From contig OZ316897.1 in assembly GCA_973895155.1 (NCBI GenBank), positions 16,057,375 to 16,121,374 on the forward strand: a DNA stretch of 64,000 bases, given 5' to 3'. Source of the stretch: Marsupella aquatica (Eukaryota; Plantae; Marchantiophyta). Made by a program: the position numbers and the translations under genes. Below the pieces are notes generated by a model. That model made no database searches. It saw nothing but the letters and a program-made list of their open reading frames with translations, and had not been told where the DNA came from. Below are positions 20,276-58,190 of the stretch, piece after piece; position 1 is the stretch's first letter, and each line of letters begins with the position of its first letter.

Positions 20276-21023
20276 TATTCGATTGGGCCACGTGACAGCT
20301 GAATTCGCAACGCCCTATATTATTGGATTGGGCAATTTGGCGGGAGAACGGCGCGTATCGCGAACTGTTGTAATAAAAGGATGGGTCGAGAGGACAAGGG
20401 TTGAAGCTCCAATGTCACACGGACGAGGCGTTAAGAAATTGGGTTTCTCTGAAGGCCTAGCATTCTTCGATCGGGAGGAGTGCGTCGAGCAGAGCTGGTG
20501 ATCAAGAACAGAGGTCCTCGATTCGGCGATTGCCCGAAATTTTGAGGTCTGTGTCGTTGAATTGGAGTCTGGAGCTTTGAAATTGAGGTTTGTGTCGTGG
20601 TTTTTCGTGTCAAGCTTTGTTGCAGAGCGCTTCTTCTGTCCGTTGTGATTGCTCCTCTGGCTTCGGAGAGCTTCGGGATACGAGTAGGATTTCAGTGCTC
20701 GGGGGTTACCAGGTGCACCAAGACTGTGGGGAGTGCGAGCTTCACTGGATCAATCGAATCGTCGGTTTCGATCTTGGTACCGTTGTTGTGTTGGAGAGCT
20801 TTTGACTTGCCAGAGCTCTCCCACCTTGAAGCTGCGTGGCGGATCGTTCTGAATCAGCCCTAGCTCGGGAGAGCGGTGATTCTCCGGCATCTGCCAATGT
20901 TGCTGTAAATGGTACTCTGGGAGGTGACATGAGATGGTGGTGATACGAGGCGTTCTAGTACTGATTCAAGAGTTAGTCGTTCGTTGTTGATGAGTATTGT
21001 GGTCCGGAACGTTCAGCGCCACC

Positions 21024-23366
21024 ATGCCAACTCTCCGCTCGCATTCCGTTGGGACTCAAAGGTCCACAGCGCGATTGCCAACTGCTGCTGGCGCGTCAAC
21101 TTCGACTCCGACGGGGTCGCTTCATAATTATAATAATACCAAGAGCAATCCTGCTGCTGAGGCTCCGTCCGTTGTCACGGCTTGTGGCTTAGATCCTCTC
21201 ACACCAGCTGGCGACCGAGAGCATGCCCTTTCGTCTCCTCCGTCTGCCGCGCAAACGAGACCGCAAACGAGAGCAGCAGCAGCAGCTGCAGCAGCAGGGA
21301 CTGCACGGAAGACACGCCAACGCTTTGGAAAGAAAGTGCTTTTCGCTGACCAGCAGGAGCATGAAGAAGGGGATGCCGCAGCGGAGATCACGGTGACGCG
21401 GAGGACTAGTAAGAGGGTGCGGAGAGGTGGAGGAGGTCAAGTTGAGTGCATCGTCGAGACGGACGACACTGCTGTGGCTATAGTTACATCTGAGATGGCG
21501 GATGGAATGGCGGTTGGGAACAAGGGGAAGCGAAAGGTTGTAGTAGCTCTGTCGGATAGTGACGAGGAAGGCCAAACCGGCGTGCCTCCATCTGATGTGG
21601 ATACCAGTGACGCGGAGGAAGAGGCAATTGGAAGAAACGGATCGAGGTGCGAGGAGGTTGGCGATGGATCTTCGAGCCATGCCACTCGAGGAGGACAATC
21701 ACCACGAGTGGTGCAGAGAACCCGGGCAGGCCGTTCTCGAATAGAATTAGATTCGGAGCTCACCAACAGAAGAGTGGAGGCTTCTAAAGCGAAATTCTTA
21801 GAGGTGGCACGGCGGCGAGCTGCACATTTCGCGCACTTCACCGAAGAAGAGGACGATCCCGCAAGCTCCTCCGCAGCCAAAGTGAATGACGTAGATTTAG
21901 GGCGAGTTGTGGATGAGCAAAATAGAAGGGCGGCCCAGCTCCTCGCCCAAGTCTCCAATGACGCCAGTCGGCTAGCTGGTAACGGTGACGGACAGGAGAA
22001 CGCATGGCCCGGCCCGTTTGTCATTGCCAGGAACTTAGTGGAGGGCCGTGAATCCGCTGCAGCTGCTCGGCACGAGTCTATTCGAGGTGCTGGACCAGAT
22101 CCAAAACAAACTTCGGTGGAATGGAAGCCGTCCAGACAGCCTGACTTCAGGAGGGTCAGGATTCCAACCTCTCTACACGACATGTGCGTCGAGGTTCTTT
22201 CTGCTAACATTGAACATGTAACTTCTCTCGAGGGAATGCCAGATGCTGCCAAGAAGCTCATCTGCGCACGGTTGTGCGCACAGCGGATTATGACACCGAA
22301 TGCCCTTCGCCTTTACTTGCTGTCGGAGCCTGAAGAAGTCATTGTCCCCGACTGCTCTTTCGCCACCGAGGAAACCCTCACAGAAGCTCTAGTGAAGTGC
22401 TCAACCCAGAGGCTGGAGGTTTTGGAATTGGGGATGTGTGGACGTGCTATGTCCGATCAGCTCTGTGCTTCCGCTTTGACTGGATTTTCCCACTCATTGC
22501 CTGTTCTTCATACGCTGGTTCTCAACGGAGCTTACCGACTTACCGACATTGGACTCAAAACATTGGTTAGTGGCAGTCCTAACCTCAGTACGCTGATTCT
22601 CAAGCAATGCAGCATGATCTCCGCAGCTGGGCTTGAGACGGTGGCAACTTCCGTCGGAAAAACATTGAAGACCCTCTCTTTGGAATCCTGTACTCAGCTG
22701 GATGCCTTAAAGATCCTGCCCCCTCTTTTGAAGATGGCCAGCTTAGAGAGTCTTTCTCTGTCTGGACTTTGTGGAATGAGCGATGGGATCATTAGTGAAC
22801 TGGCAGTAATTCTGGGCCCCCGCTTGCATGAGCTTTACATTGCCGATTGCAAGGCTCTTACAGATGCTGCAATAAGCGCAATTTCTTTGTGCTGCAGGGG
22901 TCTTAAAGTGCTTGATATTGGTAAACTCCCAACGCTTACTGACGGGGCAATTGGAAGTCTAGCTGATGGCTGCAAGTCCTTGAGAATACTTCGACTGGAT
23001 CGTGGGAAGTTTAGTGATACTACGCTAGCAGCTCTGGTCGCCGTCTCGGGGAGTTACCTGACTGACTTGTCACTTAACAGTGTTCGGCAAGCAGGGGACT
23101 TGACTCTCAGCGCTCTTTCTAAGCACTCCAAGGGGACGTTGGAGCAGCTGGATTTGTCTTTCTGCCGGGCAGTAAGTAGTGAAGCACTGGGGTTACTGGC
23201 CGATACCTGCAAAGGACTTCGTGAAATCCGACTCTTTGGCTGCACTCAGGTCACAGATTTCTTTGTGGAAGGACACTCAAATGCGGTGTTGGATGTGATC
23301 GGCATGCCTAAGACTGTTCTGGATGTCAGCGGCTCAGCTGTAAAATCCTCGAGGAAACCCGTATAG
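21024..23366 (+). CDS. RAD7: RAD7-like DNA-repair LRR protein (AMN1-type LRRs, BC-box-like motif), 780 aa, intronless
   Basis: First ATG at 21024 (the track start is TTG). Disordered N-terminus, the WPGPF motif typical of Rad7 proteins, IPTSLHDMCVEVL BC-box-like segment, then many Cys-containing LRRs ending LFGCTQVTDFF. Confidence 0.82.
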   Translation: MPTLRSHSVGTQRSTARLPTAAGASTSTPTGSLHNYNNTKSNPAAEAPSVVTACGLDPLTPAGDREHALSSPPSAAQTRPQTRAAAAAAAAGTARKTRQRFGKKVLFADQQEHEEGDAAAEITVTRRTSKRVRRGGGGQVECIVETDDTAVAIVTSEMADGMAVGNKGKRKVVVALSDSDEEGQTGVPPSDVDTSDAEEEAIGRNGSRCEEVGDGSSSHATRGGQSPRVVQRTRAGRSRIELDSELTNRRVEASKAKFLEVARRRAAHFAHFTEEEDDPASSSAAKVNDVDLGRVVDEQNRRAAQLLAQVSNDASRLAGNGDGQENAWPGPFVIARNLVEGRESAAAARHESIRGAGPDPKQTSVEWKPSRQPDFRRVRIPTSLHDMCVEVLSANIEHVTSLEGMPDAAKKLICARLCAQRIMTPNALRLYLLSEPEEVIVPDCSFATEETLTEALVKCSTQRLEVLELGMCGRAMSDQLCASALTGFSHSLPVLHTLVLNGAYRLTDIGLKTLVSGSPNLSTLILKQCSMISAAGLETVATSVGKTLKTLSLESCTQLDALKILPPLLKMASLESLSLSGLCGMSDGIISELAVILGPRLHELYIADCKALTDAAISAISLCCRGLKVLDIGKLPTLTDGAIGSLADGCKSLRILRLDRGKFSDTTLAALVAVSGSYLTDLSLNSVRQAGDLTLSALSKHSKGTLEQLDLSFCRAVSSEALGLLADTCKGLREIRLFGCTQVTDFFVEGHSNAVLDVIGMPKTVLDVSGSAVKSSRKPV

Positions 23367-27050: not shown

Positions 27051-29560
27051 TGTAGTCGTGTCGTTGCTGTAGATGTGAGTCGCGGAACTCGACTACCTTA
27101 ACACTTAGCTCCGGCGTCGCTGACTCCGACGCCGAGCTCCCTTATGGTCCAGGCCCAGATAGGCCATCCGGGGAGGACTTAGCATGGGGAGACTTGTGGG
27201 CAATGAGACGTGGCACTGTCGAGGCAAGGGGCCAAGCTGGGGACACAAACTAAGGACTTGGACTAGCCTACGGCTGGTCGGGTCAAGGGGACATGGGTCA
27301 GGCTCAAGGATGGCCGTCCGGACCGTCGGATGGACTTTGAGTTCTGAGGGCTTGGGAGTGAGCTCCTCTTGGGCCCAAGGCCAATGGAGTTGACGCCATT
27401 GGCAACGGACGCTTGGGGCGCAAGTTGTGGCCCGAAGTGGTGGCCCTCCCACCACGTGCCCGTCCAAACTCGTTTCTCAGCCTTGAAACAAGTCGAACCT
27501 TGCACTAACACGGAATGTTGGGGCAAGTTCTCCCCGACTATACTCCTTGTCGTTAGCGACCCCTCCCATACAAAGCCGCACTTGCCCTCGTCAGCACAAC
27601 CGTCGCTCAACGGTCTTTGCTATCTGCACAAGCAACCAACCAACCGGTAAGAACTTGTCTTGATCTCGGAACTCCCAAGACCATTGTCTTGCCTCAAGCT
27701 CAACAGTCGTTAGTAAGTAGGTCAGCGGATAGAGCCTCCCAGGCCCGCATGGCCTTGCCATAAGCTGAAACTAAGGTCGACATCACTGTTCGTCCAGAAC
27801 AGTCTATCTACCGGATGTCGCCCAAGCTTCCCCACTCTTTACCCGTCAATGGCTGACCGCCCTGCCTCCAGGACATGCCCATGGCCCAAACTCAGTTTGT
27901 CACAAACTAGTAGTAACACGTCGGGACCATTCAATTTCTAGATCTTAGCCACCTCTATGCGAAACTGGGTTCCGCTCAACCTCTCACCATGCATCGGGAC
28001 CAGATCTCAATGGCAGCCCCCAAAGTCTACTTGGTTCTACCTCTCCAACATCAGGTCCCCATGGGAACCAAATGCGGTTTGGTCACTGTTCGACTTCGGA
28101 TCGGCAAGAGGGACTCTCCCCATTGCAAGCCTCAAAACCAAAATCATCCAATGCACAATCAGAGAGCACCATGAGGTAGCTTTCTTCATTAGCTTTCCAA
28201 CGAGCCCAAGAACTCCCCCAACGGAGATCCGGTCGTCGAGTTATGTTTGTTTCTGCTTCAAAACTCGAAACGACGTATCTTCGTTGATCGCGATCAGCTC
28301 GAGCTCAAACTTGAGAGGACCACTCCCCTCATATATGCTTCTGGGGACCTGCCACCCCTGGACCAGCTTTGGTCCCCTATCTTTGGCCCCCTACCCGAGG
28401 GTCCGTGGGCCCCGCCACTTAGCTCGAAACGAAGATAATTGAAAACCTTCTGTAACTTGGCCTCGAGCGCAAATTGTGGCATAAGGGGCTAAAAGTTACG
28501 GCCCTAACCCCGCTCTGGTCCAGGCAACCCCCCCTGGTCCAGGCAACCCCCTCTTGGTCCATCGATGCGCGGCGACTCTAATCGAGTCTAAATCGGCCAT
28601 AACTTTTGGCCCCTAGGTCCGTTGGCCAAAACATATGCGGCCCCATGATCGGGCTCATGTGGGGCTTCTCAGGCCCCTATGGTGATCCGTTGGAAAAATA
28701 GTTCATTTTTCCGTGATCGGCAACGGGCCCAAACTACAAGTATGCGGCTTGAGTCGGCCATAACTTTTGGCCCCTGGGTCCGTTGGCCGAGAAATATGCG
28801 ACCCCATGATCGGGCTCATGTAGGGCTTCTTGGGCCCCTATGGTGATCTGTTGGAAAAATAGTTCACTTTTCCATGATCGGCAACGGGCCCAAACTACAA
28901 GCATGCGGCTTGAGTCGGCCATAACTTTTGGCCCCTGGGTCCGTTGGCCGAGAAATATGCGGCCCCATGATCGGGCTTATGTGGGGCTTCTCGGGCCCCT
29001 ATGGTGATCCGTCAGAAACATAGTTCATATTTCCGTGATCGGCAATGGGCCCAATAAAGTTAAGTGGAGCGCGTTTTTCTCAAGTCTTGTCCTTGCTCTT
29101 ACTAGCCTCCTCTTTGTTAGTTGCATCCCTAATGGCCATGATGGTAGCAAATCTAAGAGGGGCTCAACGCTGGAGTTAGGCAACGCCGGAGCAATTACGA
29201 GTAGGTGAAAGTTGTAGTCGCGACTCCCGATCCGGGTTGGGCCGGTCGGTGGCCCTGAGCGGAAATCAGATTTGAGGGCCTAGGTATGAGCACTGGTTCG
29301 GCCCGGTCGCAACGGGCTAAGGCACTCCGCTTGCGGATGCCTATCAGAAAGTTATGGGCGTTGTCAGTTGGTGGCGCGCCCATTATGCGCGATGGGATCC
29401 GAGTTGGGGGCCAAATATTTAGGGACCAAAGCTGGTCCGGGGGTGGCAAGTCCTTAGAAGCATATATGAGGGGAGTGGTGTCTCCCTGGGGGCTAAGGGC
29501 GAGCCGAAGTTGTGAGCCGCGGCGGTTGCGACTGTCGTGCGCATACATATCGCTACACAA
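27051..29560. repeat. GC/CpG-rich LTR-like repeat fragments in both orientations
   Basis: 28320-28392 is an inverted match to 29405-29478; 27077-27145 is an inverted match to 29156-29226; 27560-27890 is an inverted match to 39880-40195. Confidence 0.65.
28593..29054. repeat. 161-bp tandem array, ~2.9 copies
   Basis: TCGGCCATAACTTTTGGCCCCT starts at 28593, 28754 and 28915. Confidence 0.95.
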
Positions 29561-29670
29561 CATACATCGCTTGTCACATACATCCAGACATAGTCACACT
29601 GCCACATCACAAATACAAGAGAATGGAATACAAGTGGAACTCATGTCCACACATGTCCAAAACCCACAAT

Positions 29671-29680
29671 CGCCCCCCTA
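29671..29680 (-). other. Putative polypurine tract of the retrotransposon; 3' LTR would begin at 29668
   Basis: Minus strand reads TAGGGGGGCGAT then TGTGGG, about 165 bp after the pol stop codon. Confidence 0.45.
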
Positions 29681-29846
29681 GCTGGGAGTAAGGTCCCCTA
29701 ACTCTAGCTAGCCATGAGTTCTACAAGGTTGATATACACCTTTTTAGGTGTGAAGATCAGGAGGTCGGGTGCAAGTGAGCCCCATCGATCACCTACCTGC
29801 AATCCATATCTGCCAAGAGAACACAAATGATAACTAGTCGGCTTCA

Positions 29847-29984
29847 CCGACACTGAGGACACAACCATGATCCACTAGGAATCACCTGCAATGGTGGTGT
29901 CAAACATGACATGTGCCATCCTCTAGAACACTTATCACAAATCAACATAGTAGCTGCTCCCTGAGCAGATCCACACAACATATA
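29847..29984 (-). other. PHD finger at the integrase C-terminus
   Basis: YMLC...MLICDKCSRGWHMSCLTPPLQVIPSGSWLCPQC fits C4HC3 with the first Cys replaced by Tyr (TAT). Confidence 0.88.
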
Positions 29985-32900
29985 TTTCAAGCCAGCACGA
30001 ACATGTGCCAAGCTTGGATCTATTGTACCATCAATGTTGGGAAGGTGACATGGTGCACAGTTGCGCACATGATCCTTCCAAACCATACCATCGCGTCCCT
30101 CCAACATCAGGACACCAGAAGGCAACACTTCACGCACACGTAAGATTGTCCGGCCTGTGGTCACATCAAGTGTCGTGGGTGCTGTCTGCTGCAAATAAAC
30201 ATAATCACCAGGATGAAATCGTCGAATGCTTGCACGGTAACCTCCTCCACGAATAGTGGCATACCTCAAAGTATCACGATGTTGGGCAATGGCAAGGTTG
30301 TCAAAAGCCATGGGCATCACTCTCTGAAATACCCGTGCTCTCTCTGAACACACCTTGACCCAAACATCAGGATCATCCAAGTTCACAACTAGTGCAGCAT
30401 GACGACGAATAGCTGCTGGCAAATCTGGCTCTCTACCATAGAGCAAAAAGTAGGGTGAGAAGGATGCAAGTGATGCTTGCCGACTGAAACGGTAGCCCAT
30501 AGCTAACCAAGGTAGCTGGAGATCCCAATCTCCCAGATGACCAACCTGCAAGCCATACTTACGCAATCCTCTCTTCATAGTTTGCACAACTCTCTCAGCT
30601 AATCCATCTGCCTCAGGATGATCACGAGAGGTAGTGCGATGATCAATCAGAGCTTGTTCACACAAACTCTCAAACTCTCCACGGAACTCAGTTCCCTGAT
30701 CAGTCAACACCTCAGCTGGTGCTCCAAAATGACTGAGTACACGATCCAAAAATGTAGCAGCAACTCCTCCACTGGCTTTATCTGGCAACGCCACTAGCTC
30801 AATCCACTTGGAGAAGTGCTCCACCATGACCAAAACATACCGATTATGACGTTGGGTAAGAGGTAATGGACCAGCAAAATCCAAACTCCAACGATATCCC
30901 AAACCCATGATCGGTAACGGGTGCAACTGGGGAGTGGGAGCATTAAATGATGCTCTCACTCTGTCACATACCACACACTTAGCTATCAACTGCTGGACAT
31001 GAGTGTGCATACCACGCCACCAATACTGCGTCTGCAGCAAGCTGTAAGTGCGCTTCACACCAAAGTGACCCAACTCCTCGTGCGCATGTCGCACCAAATG
31101 TACTCGTTGTGATGGTTTTGGTACCACCAACATCCTACCATCATGCAGTACTCTCAAAAGATGGTTTCCCTCCCATCGAAACCTCTTGGCTCTCTGTAGA
31201 ACCCTGTCACGGTCCTTGGCATCAACACTGCCAACAATAGAACTATTGCGCAGATATTCCAACACTCTCACATCATTGTGAATATCTTGTTGTCCAGAAG
31301 TTACCTCACCAACATCCACATCTGAAGACTCATCACCCACTCCATCCAATGAAGTAGAGTCCACAGATCCACTGTATGCTGGCACCCAACAAAGAAAGGC
31401 AGATGCATGCCATCCTGGCACCATCTCCTTATCTGACTCATCATGCCATCTGGCTCCAGTCTCATCCTGCTGACTGGTACATGGATTGCGGCTTAATCCA
31501 TCTGCATCCAAGTTCACTTTTCCAGGCCTATGCACCACCTGGAAATCATACTCCTGTAACAACAATGCCCATCGTGCAAGCTTCCCTGTAAGCTTGTCAG
31601 ACTCCATTAACCACTTAAGAGGCTGATGATCAGTGATCAAGGTGAAGGGGTTACCAAACAAGTAGCAACGAAAGTGTGCAACAGCCCACACTGTTGCCAA
31701 ACACTCTCCCTCATAAGAGCTATACTTAGCCTCTGCTGAATTGTTTGATCTACTGGCATAAGCCACAACAAACTCATTCCCCTCATCATCCTTCTGAGTC
31801 AGCACTGCTCCAAGTCCTACTCCACTCCAATCAGTATGTAGCTGAAATGGTCTGCCTGAAATGGGTCTTCTCAAAATAGGGGATGATGCCAACCTTTGCT
31901 TCAACTCCTGAAAGGCATGCTCCTGGTCATCACCCCAAATCCATTCCTGATCCAACTTAGTGAGTATGGTCAAAGGTTTAGCAAGCTGGCTAAATCCTTT
32001 AACATACCTCCTGTAGTAGCTCGCCAATCCCAAGAATGCACGAACTCTACTCACATCAGTAGGACAAGGAATCTGTGTAATGGCCTCCACTTTAGTCTGC
32101 TGTACACCCAATCCCCCTGGGTATATGGTGTGGCCCAAATACTCAATCTGGTCTTGGAAGAACTTACACTTGCTAGGATGGAGCTTCAACCCATGTGCTC
32201 TCAATCTCTCCAACACAGTCTGCAAGTGCTGCTGATGTTCTTCCACAGTAGAAGAATAGACCAAAATATCATCAATATAACATCTGACAAAATCCAAACC
32301 TGCAAGGATTCGATCCATGACTCTCTAGAACTCAGCTGGTGCATTCTTCAACCCAAATGGTAAGAATAACCATTGATACAAACGATCTTTGCCATAAGAA
32401 TCAATCCCCCAGAATGCTGTCTTGGACCTGTCAGCATGCCTAATTGGAAGCTGATGGTATCCTGCCCTCAGATCCAATGAACTGAAAACCTTTGCATGCC
32501 CCACAGCATCAAAGATCTCCTCAGGTGTGGGCATGGCATATCGATCAGATTTTGTCTGGCGATTAATAGGTCTGTAATCACCACACATGCGCCTATCTGT
32601 GTAATTGCCATGCACATCCTTCTTGGCTGGCATCACTGTGGCAGATGCATACTCCCCATATGAAATCTCCACCAATCCAGCCTCCAACAAATCTTGAGTT
32701 CTGCTTTGAATCAGAGCTCTCTCCATGTCACTATAACGGTATGGTCTACGAAAGATTGGCGCATCACTAGCCAATTCAATCTGAATACCAGGGCCCTTCA
32801 ATGTCCCCAAATCCTTCATGCTGAATGCAAAACAATTCCAATAACTCTTCAGGAATCGATGCATGCGACGTCTCTCCTCCCCTGTTAACTTAGGGCCAAG

Positions 32901-33159
32901 CTGTGGTTCCCAACTCTCCACCAAATCCCTAATATCTCTTTGTAGGGTAGAAGAGATAGCCGATGATTGCTATTTAGCAGTAGATTGAGCAGTCCCTTCC
33001 TGCTCAACAATCTGTCCAGCCGCCAATCCTGTCATAGGTCCATGGACTGTCTGCTCGCCCCCAGCTGTGGTCAATACTGTCTCAGTGGACCGCAAGCTCA
33101 CCAAGGGACAATCAGTAATTCCGGCAGAGCGCATCCGCAACTGTTCAGCTACTCCCAAG

Positions 33160-34100
33160 CTGATAATCCAAGTCAAACAATTCAAATCCATTGCTTGACC
33201 AAGAACCTGGCGCCGCAAACCCTCTGACACAGAGACAACTGCAGTGGTGCCAGTCAAAAATCCCATAGCACGCTCTCTCTCATCAGCAGTAGGCTCCACT
33301 AACTGCTGGAGAGCTGTGTCCCATACAAGTCCAGGGCCACCTGCTCTGAATGCATATGAAGTAGAGTGGCTTACAAGAGTGGGTAATGCACAACGTGGGC
33401 ACCCAACTGCATTGACCATTGCCAATGGAGGTCTATCAGGTTGGGTCACACCCTGTGCACGACGCCCTGGATCCAAAATATCATCCACCACTAAGGCTGG
33501 TGAGCGTGGAATGCTGTCAAATGCGCGCTTCAGCACCTCACATGGGATCAAATTAGTCCACCATAAGCGTGGACGATGTGCACAAGAACCCACACGTGCA
33601 GCATCCAATAACACAGCAGGTCCAATCCAAGACCTCACCTGGTGAACACTGGCAACAATCCGACTACGATCATCACCTAACAATGACACATTCTCCAAAA
33701 TGTATGCTGGAGACTGTGTCTGATGTAGCTGGAGGTGACGCAGCACCCGTAACATCTCCCAAAACAATGCAGAGCGTGGATCATGAAGTCCATGCCCAAT
33801 GCCAGCTCTAGATTGGCCCTGACATGGCCAACCAACAATCACCAAATCAATGGGGCCAACACGATGTAGATGATCCGCCCCCAACAATGAAATATCAGCA
33901 GGTAGTGCATGCTGATAACCACGAACAGCATCCACTGGCAGCAACTGTGGATATCTATCCACCAACATAGCCACATGTCGCAATGAGACCCTCCGTGTTG
34001 TCTCATCTGTCTCCACATACAAATAACGACGCACAGGAATTCCTGCCTGAAGAACAGCAGCCAATCCAATGCTAATCCCACCAAAAAGATCCAACAAAAA
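33160..34100 (-). other. DNMT3-like C5 cytosine DNA methyltransferase domain inside pol, between protease and RT
   Basis: Motif I LDLFGGISIG, motif II YVE, motif IV DLVIVGWPCQ (catalytic Cys codon 33822-33824), motif VI YILENV, motif VIII AHRPRLWWTN, motif IX ERERAMGF, motif X RRQVLGQAM. Confidence 0.92.
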
Positions 34101-37100
34101 AATACCCTCCAGTGGATACTGCCAAGCAATAGGAGTGGTATCCAATGGTGAAAGAGTCACAGGTCCATCTGCAAGAGACTGCTCTGCTCCTGACTGTGGT
34201 GTAAAAGCATGACGTCATGCATCATGTACCAATCGTGCTGCTGCCTGTGGCAAGGCTTGTGCAGTGCCCCACACTGGTGGCACAACACTGCCAACAGGTA
34301 ATCCTCGCATGATGTGCTCCTCATGAGACTCCTCCAATGGTGGAACATCGGCTGCATGCGCATTACCCTCAATCAAATCATCAGGTCCAGCAATTACACC
34401 ACTGAATGCTGCCAAAGACAATGGTGTGGATTTAGGGCCTCCCAGAGGTCCACTAAATCTCACTGGCAATTTGCTCAATCGAGCATCTCCTAACTGCCAA
34501 TCAGGTCTATATGACACTGATTCCTCCCAAAAATCAAGAATAAATCCCATGGGGTAGAGCACTATACATCCCACCAACACATCATATGACTCTGCCTTAG
34601 TCAGAATAGCTCGCGCCTGTATCTGTGATCTATCTGTGGTATGACCTTCCTGAATCCTCAAATCAAGTGGTCTCCAGGTGATATGCTGTGTAGGTGTAGG
34701 TCCCCCCAATGAAGTCTGAATGGGAAAGGGACAATCCTCCAAATCCTCTGGACGCAATCCCAATCCACGTATGGCAGACTTCCCCAACATCAAGGGCTGA
34801 GCACCAGTATCCAGTAACACTCTCTCTGGCTGGTATACTGCTCCAGAAGGCCCAACTAATCGGAAGATACCACTCCGATTATCCAATGACACAACACTAG
34901 GTTTAAACCTAGTCCTCTCAAATGCAGGGCGTGCTGGTAAATCCACCAACCTCGCTGCTGCTGCATGCCATGTCTCACTAGTAGCAGTAGGTGGCATGGT
35001 CTTCACTGCATCAACACTGCAAGTTGCTTCTGCATGGGAAGCAACCACTGGAGTGTCCTCACAGAGTGTAGCTGCCAATCTGAACACTTCTACAGGACCA
35101 ACTCCCAAGTTCAGCATGTTTGTCGCTGAAAATAATGGAGTGCGTACTATGGCAGTAGCCGCCCCCAGCAAGGTACCTATCATCCCTGCTGCATCACTAC
35201 CTGATTTTGCCAACTTACCCACATCAGGGTTTGTCCGAACCGGGTTCATAGAGGCAATCTGAACTGTCTCTGACAATGTAAAAGACTGAGGAAGCTTTGT
35301 CTGCCGACGTGCATCCCCCCTTTGTGGATCTAACTCCACTACTGCTCCTCGGGGCTCAAGAGCTTTGGCTGCCCCGCGTGTCAAAGCTGCTGATGCATCA
35401 ATATGTGCAGTGCCACACATGAATCCCATGGTGGCAAGGTCTCCATCAGCTCCATAAGATGTGGAAGGACCATGGGATGTGGAAGGTCCATAGGATGTAG
35501 ATGCCCCATCACCAAAATTAGGTCTCACCTGGGAACTAGCCATGGCAGCTAGTTGTTGCTCCAATTGAGCAATCTTAGCATCCTTTGGATCTATGGTTAC
35601 AGCAGGGGCAGCGTCACCTCCCTGTCTCCCTGCATGTGGCATGCCACGACCACGTCCACCACCTCTACCTCCTCCTCCTCTTCCCTGATCATGTGTACGG
35701 GATCCTCCTCTCCATAACTCAGGGTGGAGTGAGAAACACCTATCCTTGGTGTGTCCAGGAGCTCCACAGTGATCACACTGTCGCTGATCAGGCGCTGATG
35801 CTCCCCCTGATCCTCTATGATCTGGACAATATCTCTGTGCATGATCCCCACCACAGGTCCAACATCCTGACTGCTGTCCAGCATAAGAGGGCACAGGTCT
35901 CTGGCTGGTAGACTCTCGTGCAGTAGGCTTCTCCCTCTGGCTCTTCCGTGCAGTAGGCTGTGGTGTGGATGTAGATGCAGCCTTTGGTGCTTCCTTGGCA
36001 AATCCGAAAGTCACCACCTTCTCATTCACCATATTGAGCTCAATGCGCTCAGAAAGGGTGAAAACAACTGCTAATGTGGGATCTGCATCCCTAAGCAGAG
36101 TGACATCTCTCACTCTGCGTCGCAATTCTCTGTCCAGAATTGCATACCAAAACTGGACTGCCTGAGCCTCTGTCACTCCCTTGGTGACAGTGATCAATCT
36201 GCGCATACGTGTGTATGCCTCACGTAGGCTCTCTCCAGTCTTGCGTTGGAACTCCTGAAGACCCTTCAACTTATCAGTTCTCACACCCTGATAGTTCTGT
36301 TTCAGTACCTCAAAGAATTCCACCACAGGATTAAATGCTGGCGCAACTCTAGTTCCTGTCACAATCACACCGGCAGGAGTAGTGGTGGATGCTGCTGGAG
36401 TGCTGCTGGTGGATGGTGTGCCACTCTGGCTAGTGCTGCTAGAAGAAGCAGCAGCTGTGGCAATTGGTTGGGCAGCCGCACTAGTGCCATAGGTGATGGA
36501 CATGTAATTAGGCGACCAATGCTGCCTCCATGCCTCAATCTCAACCAAATGAGCCTTCCGAAACTCATGGTAGTCATCCATGGGTGGCCCCTCCAAATGC
36601 TGGAATAATCCCTTCCATGCCATGAAAGGGGTAAACAACGTGACATTACGCAATGTCTGCATATCGCACCACGTATCAAACTCCTGGATGAAGTCATCTA
36701 GATCAATTGTGCCAACTGCACCAGAGTATCGTCGTGGGCCCTTTATAGCCCCGTACATCTCGTCCATATCCCACAACAAAGGTGCAACCACCTGATGATG
36801 AGGAGAACTGGTCACTGAGTCCTCATCAGAATCACTGTCTGAAGCTGCACTGCTGACTGCTACCAATGCCGTTGGCCGAAACTGTGCCCCACTCCGAGTG
36901 AAACCGGTCCATCGTCCATCGGGTAATCCAGCAGCACCAGAAGAATCCGTGGTGACCAACCCTAACCTAATCTATGTGCTAACCCTAAGGGCAATCTATC
37001 CCTGTCAGCACCACAAGCACTCACCATGGTGTGTTGGGCATCACTCCAACATCACCAAGAGAGAAATACACAGCACACTAGAATGTCCAGTTGCAAACCC

Positions 37101-37489
37101 GGATCACTCCTATGGAATCAAGTGCCCACACGAAACTAACATGGCGCATAAACAGGAAACATGTGTGAAGAGGATCCAGAAACAAGAATGGATACCATTC
37201 AACTCTCCACACAAAAGCAAATGCAAATCAATATGACAATGTGCATAAGGTTCAAGGAAGAGCCTTCATAATAGGCTTCACAATGGCACTCCAATGTTGT
37301 AGATGAGAACCAAGGCAAAATTGGTTCAATCTGTGAGTCTAGATGGACTCAGAAGTATCAAAAACCCTCAAACAGCCTCTGATTTGGCTTAGAATAGGCC
37401 TCTAAACAAACCGGGAAGTGTATAAAGCCCCCTGGCGCTTGAATCTAAACAACAAGTTGTCAAAGCTTGTGTGTACACAAGGTGGGATG

Positions 37490-37546
37490 AGAACTTGCCA
37501 GTTAAGCGCTCGCGGTTGGGAATAGCCCTGGGATGGGTGACCTCCT
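37490..37546 (+). promoter_or_regulatory. 5S rRNA-derived internal control region (box A - IE - box C), Cassandra-like
   Basis: AGAACTTGCCAGTTAAGCGCTCGCGGTTGGGAATAGCCCTGGGATGGGTGACCTCCT aligns without gaps, about 43/57 by hand, to the plant 5S core recalled from memory. Both 5S ends are absent. Confidence 0.7.
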
Positions 37547-37924
37547 CGCGCTTGACCTTGTGCCTCCCCTCGCGCTCATGGCCCGGAATAGCCCCGGGAT
37601 GGGTGACCTCGACCTCGCGCCTGCCTGCGCTCGCGATGGGTGACTTCGCGCTCGCAGTTGGGAGCACTTTCGGGATGGGTGACCTCGTGCGCCTCACACC
37701 TGACCCCAAAAATGACTACTTTCTTCACGAAAAGCTCCCGAAAACTGTCGATTTCCTTCATGAAAAACGCAGCCCTTCCACAGAATTGGCAGCAGCTTGA
37801 TTCAACACCCTTGACCCTCGTTTCTTTCACTGAAACGATGATACCGTCGCACGGGGCATTGGCAGCTCCGTTCCTTCAGGAAAAGAGCCGTCGCTTCACC
37901 TGCGCGTTGCCAACATCGTCCAAC

Positions 37925-38014
37925 AATAGCCGGCAATCAGATCTGAAGCCCCACAGTAGCCGACAATCAGATCTGAAGCCTCACAGTAGCCGGCAATCGG
38001 ATCTGAAGCCTCAC
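37925..38014. repeat. 30-bp tandem repeat x3
   Basis: AGTAGCCGGCAATCAGATCTGAAGCCTCAC-like units. Confidence 0.9.
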
Positions 38015-38613
38015 GGATCGACTTCCACTGTCCAACATCTACTCAACATTTGCTTTCCTCCACGAATCATCAATCGACCTCCAACTCAAAACCTGTCACC
38101 AATCACAAATCTGTACATCGATCGGGAAGCAGGCCGATCGGACAACAACGATACAGGTCAAGATACCAACAATCTGTTCGATAACAACACACGATCCGAG
38201 CTACCACGAACCGTCGACAACTCAATCAATCGAACTTCTGTCCGCACAGTCCGTACAACAGATTTCGAATGTGATCTTTCAATGTAATCTCCATACAATC
38301 GGCACAACGATCTCGGTCAACAATACCCCATCGATCCCGCACCGATCCGATCACACACGTATGTCAAGCCAACGCACCTTGCACTACTCAAGGAATCCAC
38401 ATTACACAAGCGGAGCTCACAGCCACCATAGCCACACTCAAGCTCCTCTCTCTCCAAGGCTCAACATTGAAAGATGACCTTTCAATGCCTCACAAGTGAG
38501 AAGTACCCTCTCACACAAACCTGACAGAACCTTATCGGCTCCAATAGCACTCATACCAAACGTACATACTCTAATAGCACGATATACTACTACACTACTC
38601 AGAATGGTGTCAG

Positions 38614-38828
38614 TGACACGACACTAAGGGAAACCGCCAAACAGAAATGGCGATATCTTTCCAACGGGAAGTCCATTGGAGGACTTCCTGGGTTCGTTGG
38701 AAATCTCTTGATGAGGGCTACGATCTTTTGAGATCAGATGGGTCCGAGGGTGCCATAGGTTCTCGTGGTTTGCGGGTGTTAGCTCACCCGCTTGCCAAAT
38801 CCTGCCGAACAGCAGCCATGTCGTGACA
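38614..38828. mobile_element. Candidate short solo or remnant LTR, 215 bp
   Basis: TG...CA ends with near-perfect 9-bp inverted termini TGACACGAC...GTCGTGACA; the interior is an inverted match to 28175-28255. Confidence 0.45.
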
Positions 38829-38954
38829 TATAGTATCGTAGCCATAGTGTATCGAAAACATACAAGTCACCGGCAATGCATATGTGCAAGCTGCTAGCAA
38901 CCAACATGCATAGAAAAAGTCCAATCACATTCACAGGTGCCAAGAAAAAGCAAC

Positions 38955-39280
38955 TGAGGATGCGGTGCCCAAGGTATACTACTGATCTGACAACAAATTC
39001 ACACTTCTTGGGGTGTATCTTTAGGTTCACCTTCTTAAGCCTCATGAATAGCTCCTCAAGGTCAAGTAGATGCTGGTCAAATCCTTTGCTGTGGACCAAC
39101 ACATCATCAATGTAGCATTTCAGAAACTCAGCACCTTGAAGAACCTGGTCCATGACTCTTTGAAAGAATATAGGCGCATTCTTCAAGCCAAATGGCATCA
39201 CCAACCACTCCCATAGTTGGTTACTACCATGGAAAGCTGTTTTCTTGCGGTCTTTTGCAAGTAGCAAAATCTGGTTGAAT
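38955..39280 (-). pseudogene. Reverse transcriptase fragment from a second Gypsy-type element
   Basis: KTAF, VMPFGLKNAPIFFQRVMDQVL, CYIDDVLVHS, LKIHPKKCEF, YLGH; truncated at both ends. Confidence 0.9.
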
Positions 39281-41498
39281 AAACATACCACCTCTTTTAT
39301 AAAAGATGGAGTTCTTCTTGAATAAAAGGCGTGATAGAAACAAACGTACTGAAATCGAATCGAAAACCGGCGAGATGCCAAGATCGGCCGGGAGCATCTA
39401 ACGAATCACTGTGTGATTTCCGTGTACGGAACCGACGAGCAGCCTCTGAAAAACTCTGTCTCACAGCGATTCAAGAAGAACTGAAGAACGGCAAAGAAAA
39501 ACATGCCCTAAGTAGGACCGGGTCCAGGCGTCACACTAACAAACCTCTTTTGCTTCAAGAACAGCCCAGACTCGCTACAAGAACATGACACTAACTCAAG
39601 TAGTACACTAGCCCTAACCATACCTAGCGGGCATGCGAGGGACATGCCGATGTGCACAAGCGGCACTGTCCCTCGACATGATAGCCAAGCCGCGTTCAGC
39701 CTCCCAAGGGAGCTTGCGTTGGGGAGGCAAGGCCAAGTAGGTGTGGAGACTGAGTCCCAAGGGTGCTCGGTCCCTAGACCATCAGTGGGGCGAATTGGGA
39801 GCGATTGCTAGGGTCGGGGCCATTCTGGTCCCAACATGTTGGGACAAGCTTGGGACAAGCTTTAGGACAAGCTACGCTATTTGGGCCATGAGCATGTCCT
39901 GAGGTCAGGGCGGTCAGTTGGTGATGGATAGGTACGAGGGGGAACCCGGGCCGCACCCAAGGAAGGAGCTGTCCTGGACAGACAGTGGGCGTGGGTTCTG
40001 GTTCCGGCTTATGGCATCGGGAGGACCTATCGCTAACCTACTTACCAACGTCTGTTGAGCTTGAGTTAGGATGCTAGACTGGGCGAGTTCTAGATCCGGA
40101 GGGGTTACTTACCAAGGTGCTTGGTCGTTTGTGCAGACAGTGAGGACCGTTGAGTAGCGGTTGTGTAGGTGAGCAAGTGCGGCTTCGTATGAGAGTGGCC
40201 GCAGGTGGTGCTAGAGGCACGTGGAAGTATTCCGTGGAGGCGTTCGGGCACCAAGGGCAGTTAGGCGCAAGCGCTGGGATTGGTGAGGGCGCTGGGTGGC
40301 GAGGTTCACCACTATGTGTCATCATTGCTTTTGTGCTATCTTTTCAAAATTGTTGTGGCTATGGTCATGATCTTGAGCAAAAGTGTTGCAGAGCTCAACA
40401 GAGAGATGCAACCTTCTTAACTGCGTAATTATGTACATCGTGACGAAGTTTAAAAAGTGAGTCAATTTTTGCAAAATTTTATTATCTAGACGGTATATGC
40501 CATTCAAACCACTGCAAACTTGCCAGGCTTGCTGTGATGATAATTCATGTACTTTCACAAATCAATTGGTTATAGAGGAGGCGGAACAAATATGCTCCGC
40601 TTAATCTTGTAATTTCAACACTCAATTACTCACCAGTTCAATTTAACGGTCTCCAAATTGTCAAATGGACTAACAGGAAAGAAAACTGCAAGGAGTGACC
40701 ATCCTATGTACAAGAGCACCAACTGCGCCACACACGCATCTCTGGAATACAACTACTGCTCCAAATGTGAGCTCTCTACCAGGAAACAACTCAGGAGTTT
40801 GCTGTGAAACCCAATGCTTCGTATCCCGGGAGGATGGTGACCCTTTGGGTTCCATCTCGTGTTGGGCTCAGAGATGTCTACCGTCTCTCAATCCCTCGCA
40901 AAAGCATAAGTCAGATACCTGCTTTCAAGTGCTCATACTAAAGAAACGGATGTTCAAAGACACCAAGAAGACCCTCGGCTCCTCACCACCAATACCACCT
41001 ATTAACCTCCATATACCTTCCATTTTACATTTCCCGTGCACACCTGTCCTTGTGATCCAGCCAGTACTTTCGGTTGTGAAAGAAGTCCTTACGAAAAGAC
41101 GTGGAATTAAGGTAGGGTAAAGTACAGGGTTAGCTTTAGAGAACTTGTGCTGATTGATGCCTAATTAGCACATCCTTGAGAGCAAGCATTGCACTTGATG
41201 TAGTGGAGATATTTCACAACAAATGCATCCACAGTCAGACGTAAGAGTTGTAACATACACGACAAAAGGACCACAAACTTACACTTCAGCTTCGCCTTCC
41301 ACGATACTCAAAATATTTTTAGGCTTAAGCACACTTAGCGTCATTCCAGGTTGGCTTTTGGTAGGGAGGATCAATTCTTACTCTAATATCTCCACATTGA
41401 GCCACTCAACAACCTGAAACTACCGTCATACTTGTGCTGTCCCGAATCGGAGAGAACATGATATAGCTGACATAGCTTTCAATTTAGTCTTACTTCCA

Positions 41499-45931: not shown

Positions 45932-46090
45932 TAATTAGTTAGATCTTCATGTGTTCACTTCTCTAAAAATGAACCACAGCTACAAAAGGTTTGGGCAGAA
46001 ACCAGTTTGTTGAGTGGTAATGGACAAGATTGTTTCACATTTGATGTAGAATTCACAAGATAACCATAACAGGATCCTTAGTACCCTTCC

Positions 46091-46615
46091 AGCAATTTCT
46101 TTTCCTTCTTTTCAAACATTAGCCAAGGTGGCTACTATTTTACCCTAGAAGCACAATTTCCTTTTCTTGTTTTCAAACATTAGCCAAGGTGGCTACTATT
46201 TTACCCTACAAGCACAGGTCTGGTTCAAGTGTAGTATTTTCTTTCAAGTACACACTCTTGTAGAGTATTTCCTGCCTCACACTCCCCATACTGCATTAGG
46301 TGGTGGGTAATGAAACATAATTTTTAAGGTTTCAGCCTGAATATTATTGGCTTGCCTGTTTTTTAGGTAAATGATTGCATTACGTGGTGGCTAATGAACA
46401 AATTTTTTAAATTTCGGCCTGAGATTGCATTAGGATTTGGCTAATGAAACATAATTTTTTAAATTTCAGCTTGAGTATTATTAGCCTGCCTGCTTTTTAG
46501 GTCAATGATTGCATTGGGTGATGGCTAATGAAACATAATTTTTAAAATTTCTGCCTGGTATCATTAGCCTAGCCTGACTCCCGAGTATCATTAGCCTGCC
46601 TGCCTGTTTTTTAGG
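46091..46615. repeat. Tandem repeats: 2 x ~61 bp, then ~4 degenerate GATTGCATTAGG..GGCTAATGAAACATAATTTTT units
   Basis: Directly visible. Confidence 0.8.
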
Positions 46616-46962
46616 TGAAGGAATGACTAGTCTTCGCCCACAAAAAAATGGCCTTTCACATGGGTACACTATTCTGGCCAATGCTTAGACAGCCTACCAA
46701 TTTGAGGTCAGAGCAGGAATCGAGCTTCCTGCTACTGATTTCTTCGTGTACGAGAAGCACAGGCGTTTGAATAGCTGCACAATGGATTTATAAGCACTGA
46801 CCATTGTAGAACGCACGAGCAATCTGGGACATTAGATCTCTGATGTCAGATTGAACAAACAATCCAGGAAGCGTCACTCGTAGAGCTGGGCAGTGCTTGT
46901 TACGCTTTGGAAGTTTGCAATCACGCTGGGTCGTCAATAAAACCTGTGCCGTCTTGGCTTGA

Positions 46963-47192
46963 CCTGAAATTATTTAAAACGCAGCTACGTACCTGTGAAA
47001 TGTGACGGTGTAAAGAGAGTGTTTCGTTGACTGGTATGCACTCGAAGATGTGAACAAATTTCGTCCAGATACGTTGGCCTGAAATTATTTAAAACGCAGC
47101 TACGTACCTGTGAAATGTCACGGTGTAAAGCGAGTGTTTCGTTGACTGGTATGCACTTGAAGATGTGAACAAATTTCGTCCAGATACGTTGG
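46963..47192. repeat. Tandem duplication, 2 x 115 bp, upstream of ECH copy 1
   Basis: CCTGAAATTATTTAAAACGCAGCTACGTACCTGTG at 46963 and 47078. Confidence 0.9.
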
Positions 47193-48195
47193 CCCAGACA
47201 ACAAGATGACACAACGGAATGCTTCTCACTTTTCATAATCTCCATCTCTGCTGTTGATTGCAACTCGATCGTGTTTTCTCGAAGACAAAACTTGGGTACC
47301 AGGGCAAGTTTCGGCCGAGGCGTCCTAACCTCACGTCAGCATGGCGGCCGACGCCGGGCTGACGCATGGAGCAACGTAGTTACTGAAGCAAGCTCGACAG
47401 GAACGAATGTGCGTGCCCTACACGAATACGGTGGTGGCACGATAACTGACATGAATTTGACATTCAAAAAGCCAATTCTTAGGGAGGGATTGTTGAATTT
47501 GTAGATGATTGGAATTTTCTGGAGAGCTACTTATAACGATCTCCCAGGGTCTTTCAATTTCACATTCGGTGGCAATAGAGGAACCTCTCTGTGCAGCATG
47601 TCAACTCGTCCTTAGTCCGATATGGGCCATGCACCAAACGGTTAGCCATTAACGGGATTTTTGCAAAGGAACAGCCCGAACTAGGTGTGCTTCAAACAGA
47701 GCTCCTCCATCAGGTGCGCCGATATATTCAGGTAAGGAATCGCAGTTTACATTCTGTTCCTGATGCTGGCAGAACTAAATGTGGAGCTACCACAGATCTA
47801 AAGAATAGGATGTAAATTGCAATTCCTTACCTGAATAGGATGTAAATACCTTGAGAGCAGGTTATCATCTACCGTGAACGAACGTGACAGTGGAATAGCA
47901 TTTTCTGATCATTTCTGATTTCCTTGATAACTGATTCCTGTTTAGGTTCCAGTTTAGGGAATGAAGCTGTCATGTGAGTTGGAATCACGTACGGAAACAG
48001 CATTTCATTGCTGTGCCGGGTGCTCATACCAAATAGAAGGCTTAGGAGAGCAATTGTCGACTGAGGACCTCACAGGCAGTTTCCGATTGATTCAAGAACT
48101 TTAGAACGAGCTCACACGCCGGTTCAATTTCACATCCAATTGCAACAGAGTCATTGAGCCGGAATTGCGCTGAAGTTGGAATTTGAACACTCAAA

Positions 48196-49134: not shown

Positions 49135-49361
49135 CTCGTCGATCAACGAAGAATGGTGGGGAGTGATGTATAGTAGATGCGGTACATTGATCTCCTAGGA
49201 GACTTATTAGCAACCCCGCACTGACAGAGCTGATTAGATTCAACTGGCTTGAATGGTCGAGCTTTGGCAGTAAATAGGTGGTGGTGAATAACATCTCCAG
49301 TTCATCCCTTCTGCAATTATTTATGGAGGTCCTTATTATTTACAAACCACCATGGGAATTT

Positions 49362-49685
49362 ACTTCCTGGATGAAAGCCATATCAACATGATTTATCGGA
49401 ATTTACTTCCTGGATGAAAGCCATATCAACATGATTTTATCACAAACTTAACATGATTTATCACAAACAGGAACCCTTATAAATGGAGCCATATCAACAT
49501 GATTTATCACAAAAAAACCATTATGATATCACAAACTTAACATGATTTATCACAAAAAAAACCATTATGAATGGTTGAAGGTGGAGCCATATCAACATGA
49601 TTTTATCACGACCAAGAACCATTATGAATGGATGAACGTGGAGCCATATCAACATGAGCCATGTCAACATGATTTGTCACAAACA
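49362..49685. repeat. Degenerate minisatellite of GCCATATCAACATGATTTATCACAAA
   Basis: The AACATGATTT core recurs about 7 times. Confidence 0.85.
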
Positions 49686-57595: not shown

Positions 57596-58190
57596 AGACG
57601 ATTGCGCTGCTTCCATGCCTTCTTTCTTGTTTCCAGTGATCAAAGTAGCATTCATCAATACTCTTCGACAATTGCGCTTCCATGATTGTTCTCTTTACTC
57701 CAAGAAACAACACTCGTCAATCCTTCAGGCATCATATACTGCTGGACAATTGCGCTTTCATGCATTTTCTCTTGTTTCTAAGAGACAAACATCCGCCATC
57801 AGATCCTTTGACAGCCGTGCTTCCAAGCCTTCTCTGTTATCAATAAAGAAACAAACAGCACTCGTCAAACCCTCGACAATTGAGCTTCTCAGAGACACGA
57901 ACAACGTTCATCAAATCCTGTTAGACAACTGTGCTGCCATGCATTCGCTCGTATCTCCAAAAAAACAACCAGCATTCATCACATCCTTTTAGCAATTGAG
58001 TTTAGTTCCAGGCCTCATCTCTCTTATCTCCCAGAAACAAACGGCACTGATCAAATCCTGCAAGAAAATGAGCTTCCATGCCTTCTCTCGTTTCTCCAAG
58101 AAACAGCAGTCAACAAATCCACTAGCTGTAGACAGCTGAGCTTTCAAGCCCTCTCCTGTATCTCCAAAGCAACAGCAACTTCAAGAACCT
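57596..58190. repeat. Degenerate ~66-bp tandem array, about 9 units
   Basis: Approximate consensus GACAATTGCGCTTCCATGCCTTCTCT...TCTCCAAGAAACAA.CAGCA.TC.TCAAATCC. Confidence 0.75.

Follow-up and report, generated by a model that had tools for sequence, protein, structure and literature searches.

A DNMT3-type methyltransferase domain on the Gag side of a conserved stop codon in a split-repeat Gypsy retrotransposon of Marsupella aquatica

The window analyzed here is a stretch of 64,000 nucleotides of Marsupella aquatica (contig OZ316897.1, positions 16,057,375 to 16,121,374). It contains on its minus strand an element of 9086 bp (29533..38618) that starts with TGTCA and ends with CACGACA, flanked by 4-bp target-site duplications of sequence GTCG at 38619..38622 on the 5′ side and 29529..29532 on the 3′ side. 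Of six TGTCA starts in the 3.3-kb stretch ahead of gag, only that at 38618 is preceded by a 4-mer that recurs after the 3′ end. At that end the alignment to the related loci L002, L032 and L052 stops at 29532-29533, which is their B|A junction as defined below. The TG...CA termini and the 4-bp duplication are those of canonical LTR retrotransposons, yet there is no LTR pair in the window, two full direct-repeat LTRs being absent; LTR finders would likely miss such elements for this reason. The original prediction had spanned 29844..36959; the real extent is 38618-29533, with no LTR pair and with a terminal PHD finger. A host RAD7-like gene in the window is 83% identical to that of Calypogeia fissa and 52% to that of Sphagnum, bearing out the predicted land-plant host. 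No tRNA gene was found within the window.

A single frame (36971-29844) carries Gag, protease, C5-methyltransferase, reverse transcriptase (RT), RNase H and integrase, as identified from the window sequence and Pfam, and is interrupted by three in-frame stops at 34215-17, 32970-72 and 32325-27. Two of these are private to this copy. That at 34215..34217, in the interval between protease and methyltransferase, is replaced by another letter in 99-100% of the summed contig depth in each of four runs, and that at 32325..32327, within RT, in 84-99.9% of the depth in the four runs. In the related loci no conserved stop was found between protease and methyltransferase, stops there being spread over many positions. 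Since the two stops are private decay the window copy is dead; on its sequence it is an inactivated full-length Gypsy-type retrotransposon. The remaining stop divides the frame into ORF1, Gag-protease-DNMT (32970..36767, 1265 codons from the first methionine), and ORF2, RT-RNase H-integrase-PHD (29844..32969, 1041 codons), which share one frame and each bear one of the private stops. The arrangement is intact in L021, where an ORF1 of 1369 codons (976-5085) is followed by a single TAG CAG TTA and then in frame by an ORF2 of 1047 codons (5086-8229). Unbroken ORF1 counterparts are also found among the Marchantia and Calypogeia-cluster proteins, and Mp_4g09160 is, like L021, a naturally intact copy.

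Gag contains two CCHC zinc knuckles by sequence (35736..35864). The aspartic protease (34458..34907, DTG at 34817-34800) gives a weak match to PF13650 (E = 0.006) that is stronger in homologues (2e-4 to 1e-6). ORF2 comprises RT (32115..32933, PF00078, YIDD near 32279-32268), RNase H (31482..31853, PF17917, 7e-37), a DDE integrase with its H2C2 zinc finger (30417..31100, PF17921 and PF00665) and a C-terminal PHD finger (29847..29999, PF00628, 1.7e-10), for which the best PDB matches are CHD4, DPF2, PHF12 and PHF21A. The first cysteine of the PHD finger is lost in the window copy and present in all nine related loci shown. PHD fingers that read H3K4me3 feature an aromatic cage, which this one lacks.

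The methyltransferase domain (33141..34154) was assigned from Pfam, PDB sequence matches, an AlphaFold fold match and its motifs. It matches the C5-methyltransferase family PF00145 with E = 2.4e-10. The closest PDB sequence is human DNMT3A (7.5e-11), followed by DNMT3C and DNMT3B; the weakest matches are HaeIII and 4onj (both 0.0015), the latter labeled just 'DNA methyltransferase' and presumably a DRM. An AlphaFold model with a pLDDT of 92.8 matches DNMT3A and DNMT3B (E ~1e-19, target TM 0.82-0.84); a model built from six sequences was poor (pLDDT 52.6) and was set aside. The motifs run without permutation from 34094 to 33180: I (34094-34065), PCQ of IV (33833-33816), ENV of VI (33701-33687), RxR of VIII (33581-33552), IX (33281-33258) and X (33203-33180). 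Thus the predicted DNMT3-like order stands, and identity as a DRM is rejected by the lack of a circularly permuted order. The catalytic Cys, Glu and Arg are kept, and C113, E156 and R198 are invariant in alignment A1. Among full-domain proteins of at least 45% identity, PCQ is present in 78 of 82 and ENV in 80 of 82. By sequence and fold the domain is a methyltransferase of DNMT3 type, and DNA methylation activity is predicted.

Between the DNMT and RT lies the conserved stop, TAG followed by CAA TCA (32964..32972), which recurs in copies and related loci and forms the UAG-CAR-YYA readthrough context of PMC3159437. Positions 32964-32979 have no variant above 2% in four runs, while the flanking positions 32963 and 32980 are variable. 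A homologous stop in the RT frame occurs in 28 of 29 clade-A loci that contain the junction (21 TAG, 7 TAA, 1 sense), although 26 of the 29 are one family and the stop-bearing independent lineages number about three. CAR-YY follows the stop position in 28 of the 29, and the full CAR-YYA is found in three of the 29, in the window copy and two diverged contig ends. The conserved stop means that the DNMT ends ORF1, and by default is not translated with RT; indeed 77 of the 82 full-domain proteins have no RT downstream of the DNMT. The original prediction of an intact methyltransferase in frame between protease and RT is therefore right as to position, motifs and catalytic residues, but the frame holds three stops, and the domain closes ORF1 instead of lying inside pol. 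This organization is not universal. Clade B (30 loci, 38-44% identity, with ECQ and ENT motifs) has no conserved DNMT/RT stop, and of 155 wider relatives 91 have their DNMT between RNase H and integrase, so that capsid-level dosage is not required lineage-wide.

UAG-CAR-YYA is the readthrough motif of TMV type and is known in plants; gag-pol of MuLV is likewise expressed by readthrough (PMC3159437). In these systems as in the element an in-frame UAG parts the polymerase from a protein encoded upstream of it and made in abundance, but the MuLV stop directly follows Gag whereas that of the element follows protease and DNMT, and readthrough of the latter is predicted. Readthrough of the UAG would quite probably yield a minor Gag-PR-DNMT-RT-RH-INT-PHD protein beside abundant Gag-PR-DNMT. 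RT and integrase might instead be supplied by splicing or reinitiation, with the DNMT still linked to Gag. Reinitiation is possible in the family of 26 loci (Sphagnum type), because two codons beyond the stop there is an ATG, the context of the stop being CAA CCC and not the full CAR-YYA; and DNMT and RT are joined in four Marchantia and Sphagnum gene models (P0006, P0009, P0012 and P0040), which are predictions. Yet no ATG follows the stop in the window, L021 or L028, all 23 clade-A loci without a linker frameshift have the stop in frame with RT, and the nine invariant bases match a known plant readthrough signal; we consider this route unlikely.

The ends of the element are unusual. Terminal repeat A (38283..38618, ~336 bp) resembles the promoter/R/U5 half of a permuted LTR; we infer its boundary, and its length and position are those of A1 in L032 and L052. 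Terminal repeat B (29533..29669, 137 bp) is the U3-like half and ends in the att half-site CACGACA. A polypurine tract (PPT, 29670..29683), in the same position in related loci, adjoins B, and a candidate self-priming primer-binding site (PBS, 38274..38285) comes immediately after A. The latter is perfectly complementary over 12 nt to the likely transcript 5′ end (38464..38475), which would act as the primer. A 12-nt complement was reached in 3 of 300 shuffles, and it is paired in the minimum free energy fold (overall z = –1.2). Counterparts of 15-17 nt occur in four of nine related loci, and the complement is short or absent in the other five. It is likely that the RNA primes itself in the manner of Tf1.

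While the window copy is A...B, eight related loci have the arrangement A1...B1-A2-B2. Matching 4-bp duplications flank seven of the eight full-ended loci as well as the window copy, L044 being without one. In seven of the eight loci A2|B2 fuses, to within 1-2 nt, the base that precedes the PBS with the one that follows the PPT; in L057 most of B is deleted at this joint, as end-joining would be expected to give. The identities of A1/A2 and B1/B2 run together, e.g. 92/94, 91/93 and 85/87%. The split-repeat geometry suggests, from sequence comparison, that the element integrates from a circle which is opened at an internal palindrome. RT would make linear [BA]-internal-[BA] DNA that is then circularized, and integrase would cut CACGACA-NN-TGTCA to leave CA-3′ ends with 2-nt overhangs, inserting A-internal-B-A-B from a two-repeat circle or A-internal-B, the form in the window, from a one-repeat circle. 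We regard this whole circle step as likely, though the A-internal-B form can alternatively arise by recombination between B1 and B2 after insertion.

There is a parallel in the IS3 family, which transposes via a circle with a DDE enzyme acting at the junction of abutted ends. Retroviral integrases can also cleave palindromic circle junctions (PMC1905944): at the two-LTR circle junctions of HIV-1 and foamy virus a DDE enzyme likewise cuts the palindrome of abutted TG...CA ends (PMC1905944; PMC1180852, PMC4372172). There the cleavage is a side reaction, whereas in the element the palindrome has its template within the repeat and integration would ordinarily go through the circle. Could the split repeats have arisen without a circle, by an RT template switch like that of DIRS and Ngaro elements, with integration of a linear A...B cDNA through its termini? 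The repeat layout is of DIRS type (PMC5890265), and linear single-stranded intermediates have been reported for DIRS-1 (PMC7192593). However, the PPT adjoins B1 and the PBS adjoins A1, from which two-jump reverse transcription would give [BA]-internal-[BA], and A2|B2 is the exact join of the ends of that molecule, once with a deletion. A template switch is thus improbable in our judgment. Membership of the DIRS/Ngaro class itself is rejected: the element has rve and H2C2 domains and target duplications, and no match to a tyrosine recombinase.

How widespread is this type of element? Searches returned 51 + 195 protein matches and 80 loci. Relatives are found in Marchantia, Riccia, Calypogeia, Sphagnum, Closterium and Klebsormidium, and in Scenedesmus with the DNMT elsewhere in Pol, and the same domain order is present in dozens of loci and in named genomes of at least five bryophyte species. 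The family is highly multi-copy, with 6626 matching contigs in run X1, contig depth not being copy number. The DNMT clade comprises 442 clusters at 50% identity (E ≤ 1e-30) and extends to chlorophytes. Matches in viral contigs were all weak and to methyltransferases of phage type (17 loci, 24-42% over short stretches). The domain is under purifying selection similar to that on the protease: dN/dS is 0.11-0.17 in eight between-family pairs, most pairs being near saturation in dS, 0.14 in the unsaturated pair L021/L022, and 0.70 in a close, decayed pair. All 42 PR-DNMT-RT sequences, including GAQ93235.1 of Klebsormidium nitens, fall into one DNMT clade in FastTree (0.993), but the clade has a UFBoot of 43 in a reduced IQ-TREE run, in a set of sequences without host DNMT3, and the RT and DNMT trees each group these elements together. 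A one-off capture of a host gene, or an assembly artefact, would suit the broken state of the window copy; set against the recurrent order, the low dN/dS and the two trees, it has negligible probability. The element is depleted in CG (observed/expected 0.44, compared with 0.76-0.97 in three host genes), which host methylation explains equally well.

The kind of element is already known, as this one is related to KnitGypsy-Dnmt3 of K. nitens, a Gypsy element with a DNMT3 that has been published (de Mendoza et al. 2018, PMC5890265); 'streptophytes (Gypsy-DNMT3)' is the name used in bioRxiv 10.64898/2026.05.21.726589. The two share Gypsy domains, a DNMT3 that is intronless and non-permuted and keeps its motifs intact, purifying selection and DIRS-like split repeats. 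GAQ93235.1 has the order knuckle-protease-DNMT with 36% domain identity, and, compared as a protein alone, also ends after the DNMT, 12 residues beyond the domain. As against KnitGypsy-Dnmt3 as described in PMC5890265, the present element has a land-plant host, bryophyte-wide spread, a readthrough-type stop with the DNMT on the Gag side, a PHD finger, putative self-priming, and an internal att palindrome with 4-bp duplications. 'Marchantia' has no match in the available text and supplements of that paper, nor 'PHD' in the text. The proposal of a new land-plant lineage or a charophyte survivor is thus half upheld: the charophyte kinship is supported, but the lineage is not isolated.

Other elements are more distant. 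SymbioDIRS-Dnmt3 and SymbioLINE-Dnmt are also retroelements with a C5-methyltransferase, and differ in element class or DNMT clade (PMC5890265). In the EpiLTRs of Cymbomonas and Euglena the DNMT is sister to DNMT4 and is encoded 3′-terminally in pol, together with DAM and a chromodomain (10.64898/2026.05.21.726589). The Tcn1 and Tf1-Sushi chromoviruses are, like the element, Gypsy elements of non-seed plants that are predicted to self-prime and whose integrase ends in a chromatin reader (Neumann et al. 2019, PMC6317226), but have a chromodomain, no DNMT and two LTRs in place of PHD finger, DNMT and split repeats; Pfam finds no chromodomain, the mark of Tcn1, at the C-terminus of our integrase. 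Troyka, an element of animals only (PMC12440569), is rejected for want of CG...CG termini and 3-bp duplications, and the NCGN target preference of Phygy (PMC6317226) fits none of eight duplications. The host DNMT3 proteins of non-flowering plants, PpDNMT3a and PpDNMT3b, also have a non-permuted DNMT3-type domain, but with DUF3444 and introns (PMC6453930). Besides PMC5890265 we found no paper on Gypsy elements with split repeats, and none on land-plant DNMT retrotransposons, their readthrough or a circle route; subscription journals and Repbase lay mostly outside the coverage, so that absence is unproven. The searched text of PMC12344493, PMC6317226, PMC12885004 and 10.1101/2021.11.30.470311 has no matching term for a land-plant DNMT retrotransposon, readthrough or a split-repeat Gypsy.

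What might the methyltransferase do? We lean, by a narrow balance, to a Gag-linked DNMT3 that is present at capsid dosage, is packaged, and methylates the element's own new DNA, with rare readthrough supplying RT and integrase. In more specific form the case is evenly balanced: the protease would release the DNMT, which would methylate the cDNA or the circle, so that the copy arrives pre-marked as host-like silent chromatin. The target is likely to be CG, by analogy with DNMT3, and SymbioDIRS-Dnmt3 of Symbiodinium, also carried by a transposable element, performs de novo CG methylation in yeast (PMC5890265). The PHD finger could perhaps read unmodified H3 tails and steer insertion away from active promoters, a step to which we give slightly less credence.

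The fold might alternatively serve, like a nucleocapsid, as a non-catalytic or RNA-acting binding module that holds cDNA ends for the circle or modifies RNA. Dosage at the level of Gag fits a structural role, PCQ is changed to ECQ and ENV to ENT in clade B and many algal members, and the Klebsormidium domain gave no methylation activity in yeast, a result its authors call inconclusive (PMC5890265). Nevertheless the catalytic residues, Cys, Glu and the two Arg, are conserved clade-wide (78-80 of 82), as is motif I for SAM binding, and the fold matches DNMT3, not DNMT2, making this very unlikely. Somewhat less remote, but still quite unlikely, is that the DNMT is a brake or host benefit in cis or trans, silencing resident or fresh copies and not disguising cDNA. 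De Mendoza et al. raised this option (PMC5890265), ORF1-level dosage would suit a diffusible nuclear enzyme, and moss host DNMT3b methylates CG and CHH in heterochromatin (PMC6453930). But copies lacking the DNMT could cheat a brake in trans, and still a great many lineages retain the domain, which is under protease-like selection in a family that is highly multi-copy.

Returning to packaging and self-methylation, a broader picture can be put forward, more tentatively: a green-plant-wide Gypsy lineage rewired for self-priming, an obligate cDNA circle and an IS3-like cut of an internal palindrome, whose bryophyte members load active DNMT3 at capsid stoichiometry. The copy would be silenced in advance by methylation, which could also protect the spare, CG-holding att palindrome inside integrated A...B-A-B copies against a second cut.

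Several ORF1 proteins of the family are annotated as host methyltransferases, and thus inflate DNMT counts in bryophyte annotations. If our interpretation is correct, the geometry of the ends represents a natural case in which a circle precedes integration by an LTR-type integrase, a route long seen as a retroviral side path. The conserved stop in turn predicts the dosage of the DNMT enzyme, and the question of why a transposable element should carry the silencing enzyme of its host would move into Marchantia, where copies are numerous and which is a genetic model.

The element lies on the minus strand (38618-29533). One frame of 2376 codons (36971-29844) encodes Gag, protease, a C5-methyltransferase, reverse transcriptase (RT), RNase H, integrase and a PHD finger. 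The original prediction of a genuine, non-permuted C5-methyltransferase of the DNMT3 kind is borne out. The profile check of the translation gave a significant PF00145 match (E = 2.4e-10), the top of 32 PDB sequence matches is DNMT3A, and the predicted structure (72-sequence alignment, pLDDT 92.8) matches DNMT3A/3B with E about 1e-19. The motif order is unpermuted, and on reading the sequence the catalytic residues are all there.

The frame contains three in-frame stops, at 34215-17, 32970-72 and 32325-27. Are these decay, or a conserved readthrough-type signal? In contigs from four public runs (two possibly from the source material) aligned to 32200-34400, the first and third are replaced by another letter in 84-100% of depth. 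Because these two stops are private to it, the window copy is dead. The central stop behaves differently. In the narrow alignment 10 places vary at a 2% threshold, none of them within 32964-32979, with variants immediately outside at 32963 and 32980. This invariant block contains TAG CAA TCA, which fits the tobamovirus-type readthrough signal UAG-CAR-YYA (PMC3159437, in part). Within the best 80 of 307 metagenome loci, the junction is spanned in 29 of clade A, whose DNMT is 50-71% identical. A stop occupies the homologous place in 28 of the 29, and CAR-YY follows it in 28; 26 are a single family with the context CAA CCC, grouping with named Sphagnum proteins. One metagenome locus, L021, is intact, having a 1369-codon Gag-PR-DNMT, a single TAG CAG TTA and a 1047-codon RT-RH-INT-PHD. 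RT is absent after the DNMT in 77 of 82 full-domain proteins of at least 45% identity, a count that includes 5 truncated sequences and many near-duplicates. The conserved stop between DNMT and RT is absent in 30 loci of clade B, a second family (38-44%). Judged by sequence, the conserved stop, L021 and the proteins without RT after the DNMT indicate that in clade A the Gag-protease ORF terminates with the DNMT. The predicted placement in frame between protease and RT thus stands, but not its description as inside pol.

The DNMT dN/dS is 0.11-0.17 in eight between-family pairs and 0.18-0.30 in three other pairs, values well below 1; one pair of close decayed copies gives 0.70. The protease resembles the DNMT in this respect, and RT is lower.

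No LTR pair was found in the window. Eight related loci, with both clades represented, have a terminal repeat split into halves A and B and arranged A1...B1-A2-B2, a layout also noted for KnitGypsy-Dnmt3 of Klebsormidium nitens (PMC5890265, Fig. 4c legend). In seven of the eight a 4-bp duplication flanks TGTCA...CAYGACA ends. The window copy is A...B only, with GTCG on either side. Six further loci likewise extend no further than the first B, but in these the two ends are not both available for comparison. A 1.5-kb leader separates A from gag, and contains short tandem repeats (37300-38060, minus strand), including three copies of a 30-nt unit around 38010-37925 and repeated GAGGTCACCCATC words. 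B1 is directly preceded by a polypurine tract, and the stretch directly 3′ of A1 complements a sequence within A that follows a TATA-like box by about 25-30 nt. This complement is 12 nt in the window (reached by 3 of 300 shuffles) and 15-17 nt in four of nine loci, and is similar to Tf1-type self-priming (PMC6317226, in part). Because of these two flanking signals, ordinary reverse transcription would be expected to yield a [BA]-internal-[BA] cDNA. Integrated copies are a circularly permuted version of this molecule. In seven of eight loci the A2/B2 joint matches the fusion of both predicted ends of the cDNA to within 1-2 nt, the other having a deletion there. The B/A joint is a palindrome, CACGACA-NN-TGTCA; cleavage after each CA would leave 2-nt overhangs, as used by integrases. 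A two-repeat circle would give A...B-A-B, while the window's A...B could come from a one-repeat circle, or from later B1/B2 recombination.

How widespread are these elements? A profile search gave 442 clusters at E ≤1e-30. The matches listed name Marchantia polymorpha, M. paleacea, Riccia sorocarpa, Calypogeia fissa and three Sphagnum species, together with the algae Closterium, Klebsormidium nitens and Scenedesmus, and no vascular plant. The DNMT is therefore no one-off capture missing from other copies. In 155 proteins it lies in the RNase H/integrase interval in 91 and the protease/RT interval in 27, with 37 unplaced. In unrooted trees without host DNMT3, the PR-DNMT-RT sequences form one group for the DNMT (42/42, FastTree 0.993, but a reduced run gave a UFBoot value of just 43) and fall together for RT (16/16 plus the window, support 0.969). 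Two Scenedesmus proteins (P0305, P0406) and about 90 profile-search representatives form a large RT-RH-DNMT-INT-PHD polyprotein group, likely from green algae, with the same DNMT clade elsewhere in Pol. The second DNMT-Gypsy family (loci L040-L080), with ECQ/ENT motifs and no stop before RT, also has split repeats, the self-priming signal, PHD and 4-bp duplications. A 455-aa relative on a 2.4-kb contig (P0139), labelled a Candidatus Obscuribacterales DNA methyltransferase, is likely plant transposon DNA binned into a bacterial MAG.

Among its 12 matches, a RAD7-like gene (21021-23363) shares 83% identity with that of Calypogeia fissa, compared with 52% for Sphagnum and 38-47% for vascular plants. 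The host is on this basis a land plant, as predicted, and likely a liverwort. In contrast to this gene, the window DNMT (33141-34154) shows much the same identity to copies from Calypogeia (71%) and Marchantia (72%) as to Sphagnum-type ones (69-71%); the RT-integrase DNA shares 71% identity with Sphagnum-type loci, and in the tree the Sphagnum copies are nested among those of liverworts. It is possible from these comparisons that the element moved horizontally among bryophytes. It is embedded in a nest of older repeats: an RT fragment of a different Gypsy element just upstream (38779-39405, minus strand; 45% to the element's RT), inverted matches (27662-27890/39880-40096) and a 161-bp triple repeat (28593-29075). 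Further along, an intronless enoyl-CoA hydratase-like gene with a hydrophobic N-terminal stretch forms an inverted duplication (48150-49206 and 54277-55333, about 90%), enclosed by a longer decayed inverted repeat (about 45984 to 60844). An intronless NmrA-like gene (62188-63243, plus strand; PF05368) could be of microbial origin.

The DNMT-Gypsy kind has already been published for one alga (PMC5890265, in part); in the literature, incompletely covered, nothing turned up on such elements in land plants, on the readthrough-type stop, on the PHD or on a circle as the route to integration. Against a functional mechanism, the Klebsormidium DNMT domain was inactive in yeast (same source, in part), in a test its authors called inconclusive, and the stop is dispensed with in clade B and algal forms. 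The element is CG-depleted, which does not separate host from self methylation. We infer that, most likely, the abundant ORF1 product (Gag-protease-DNMT) would form a particle carrying one DNMT per Gag, with RT and integrase provided via readthrough. The protease would release the DNMT, which may then methylate the cDNA or circle ahead of insertion. The PHD, whose nearest fingers are those of CHD4, DPF and PHF21A, would tether to chromatin without H3K4me3.
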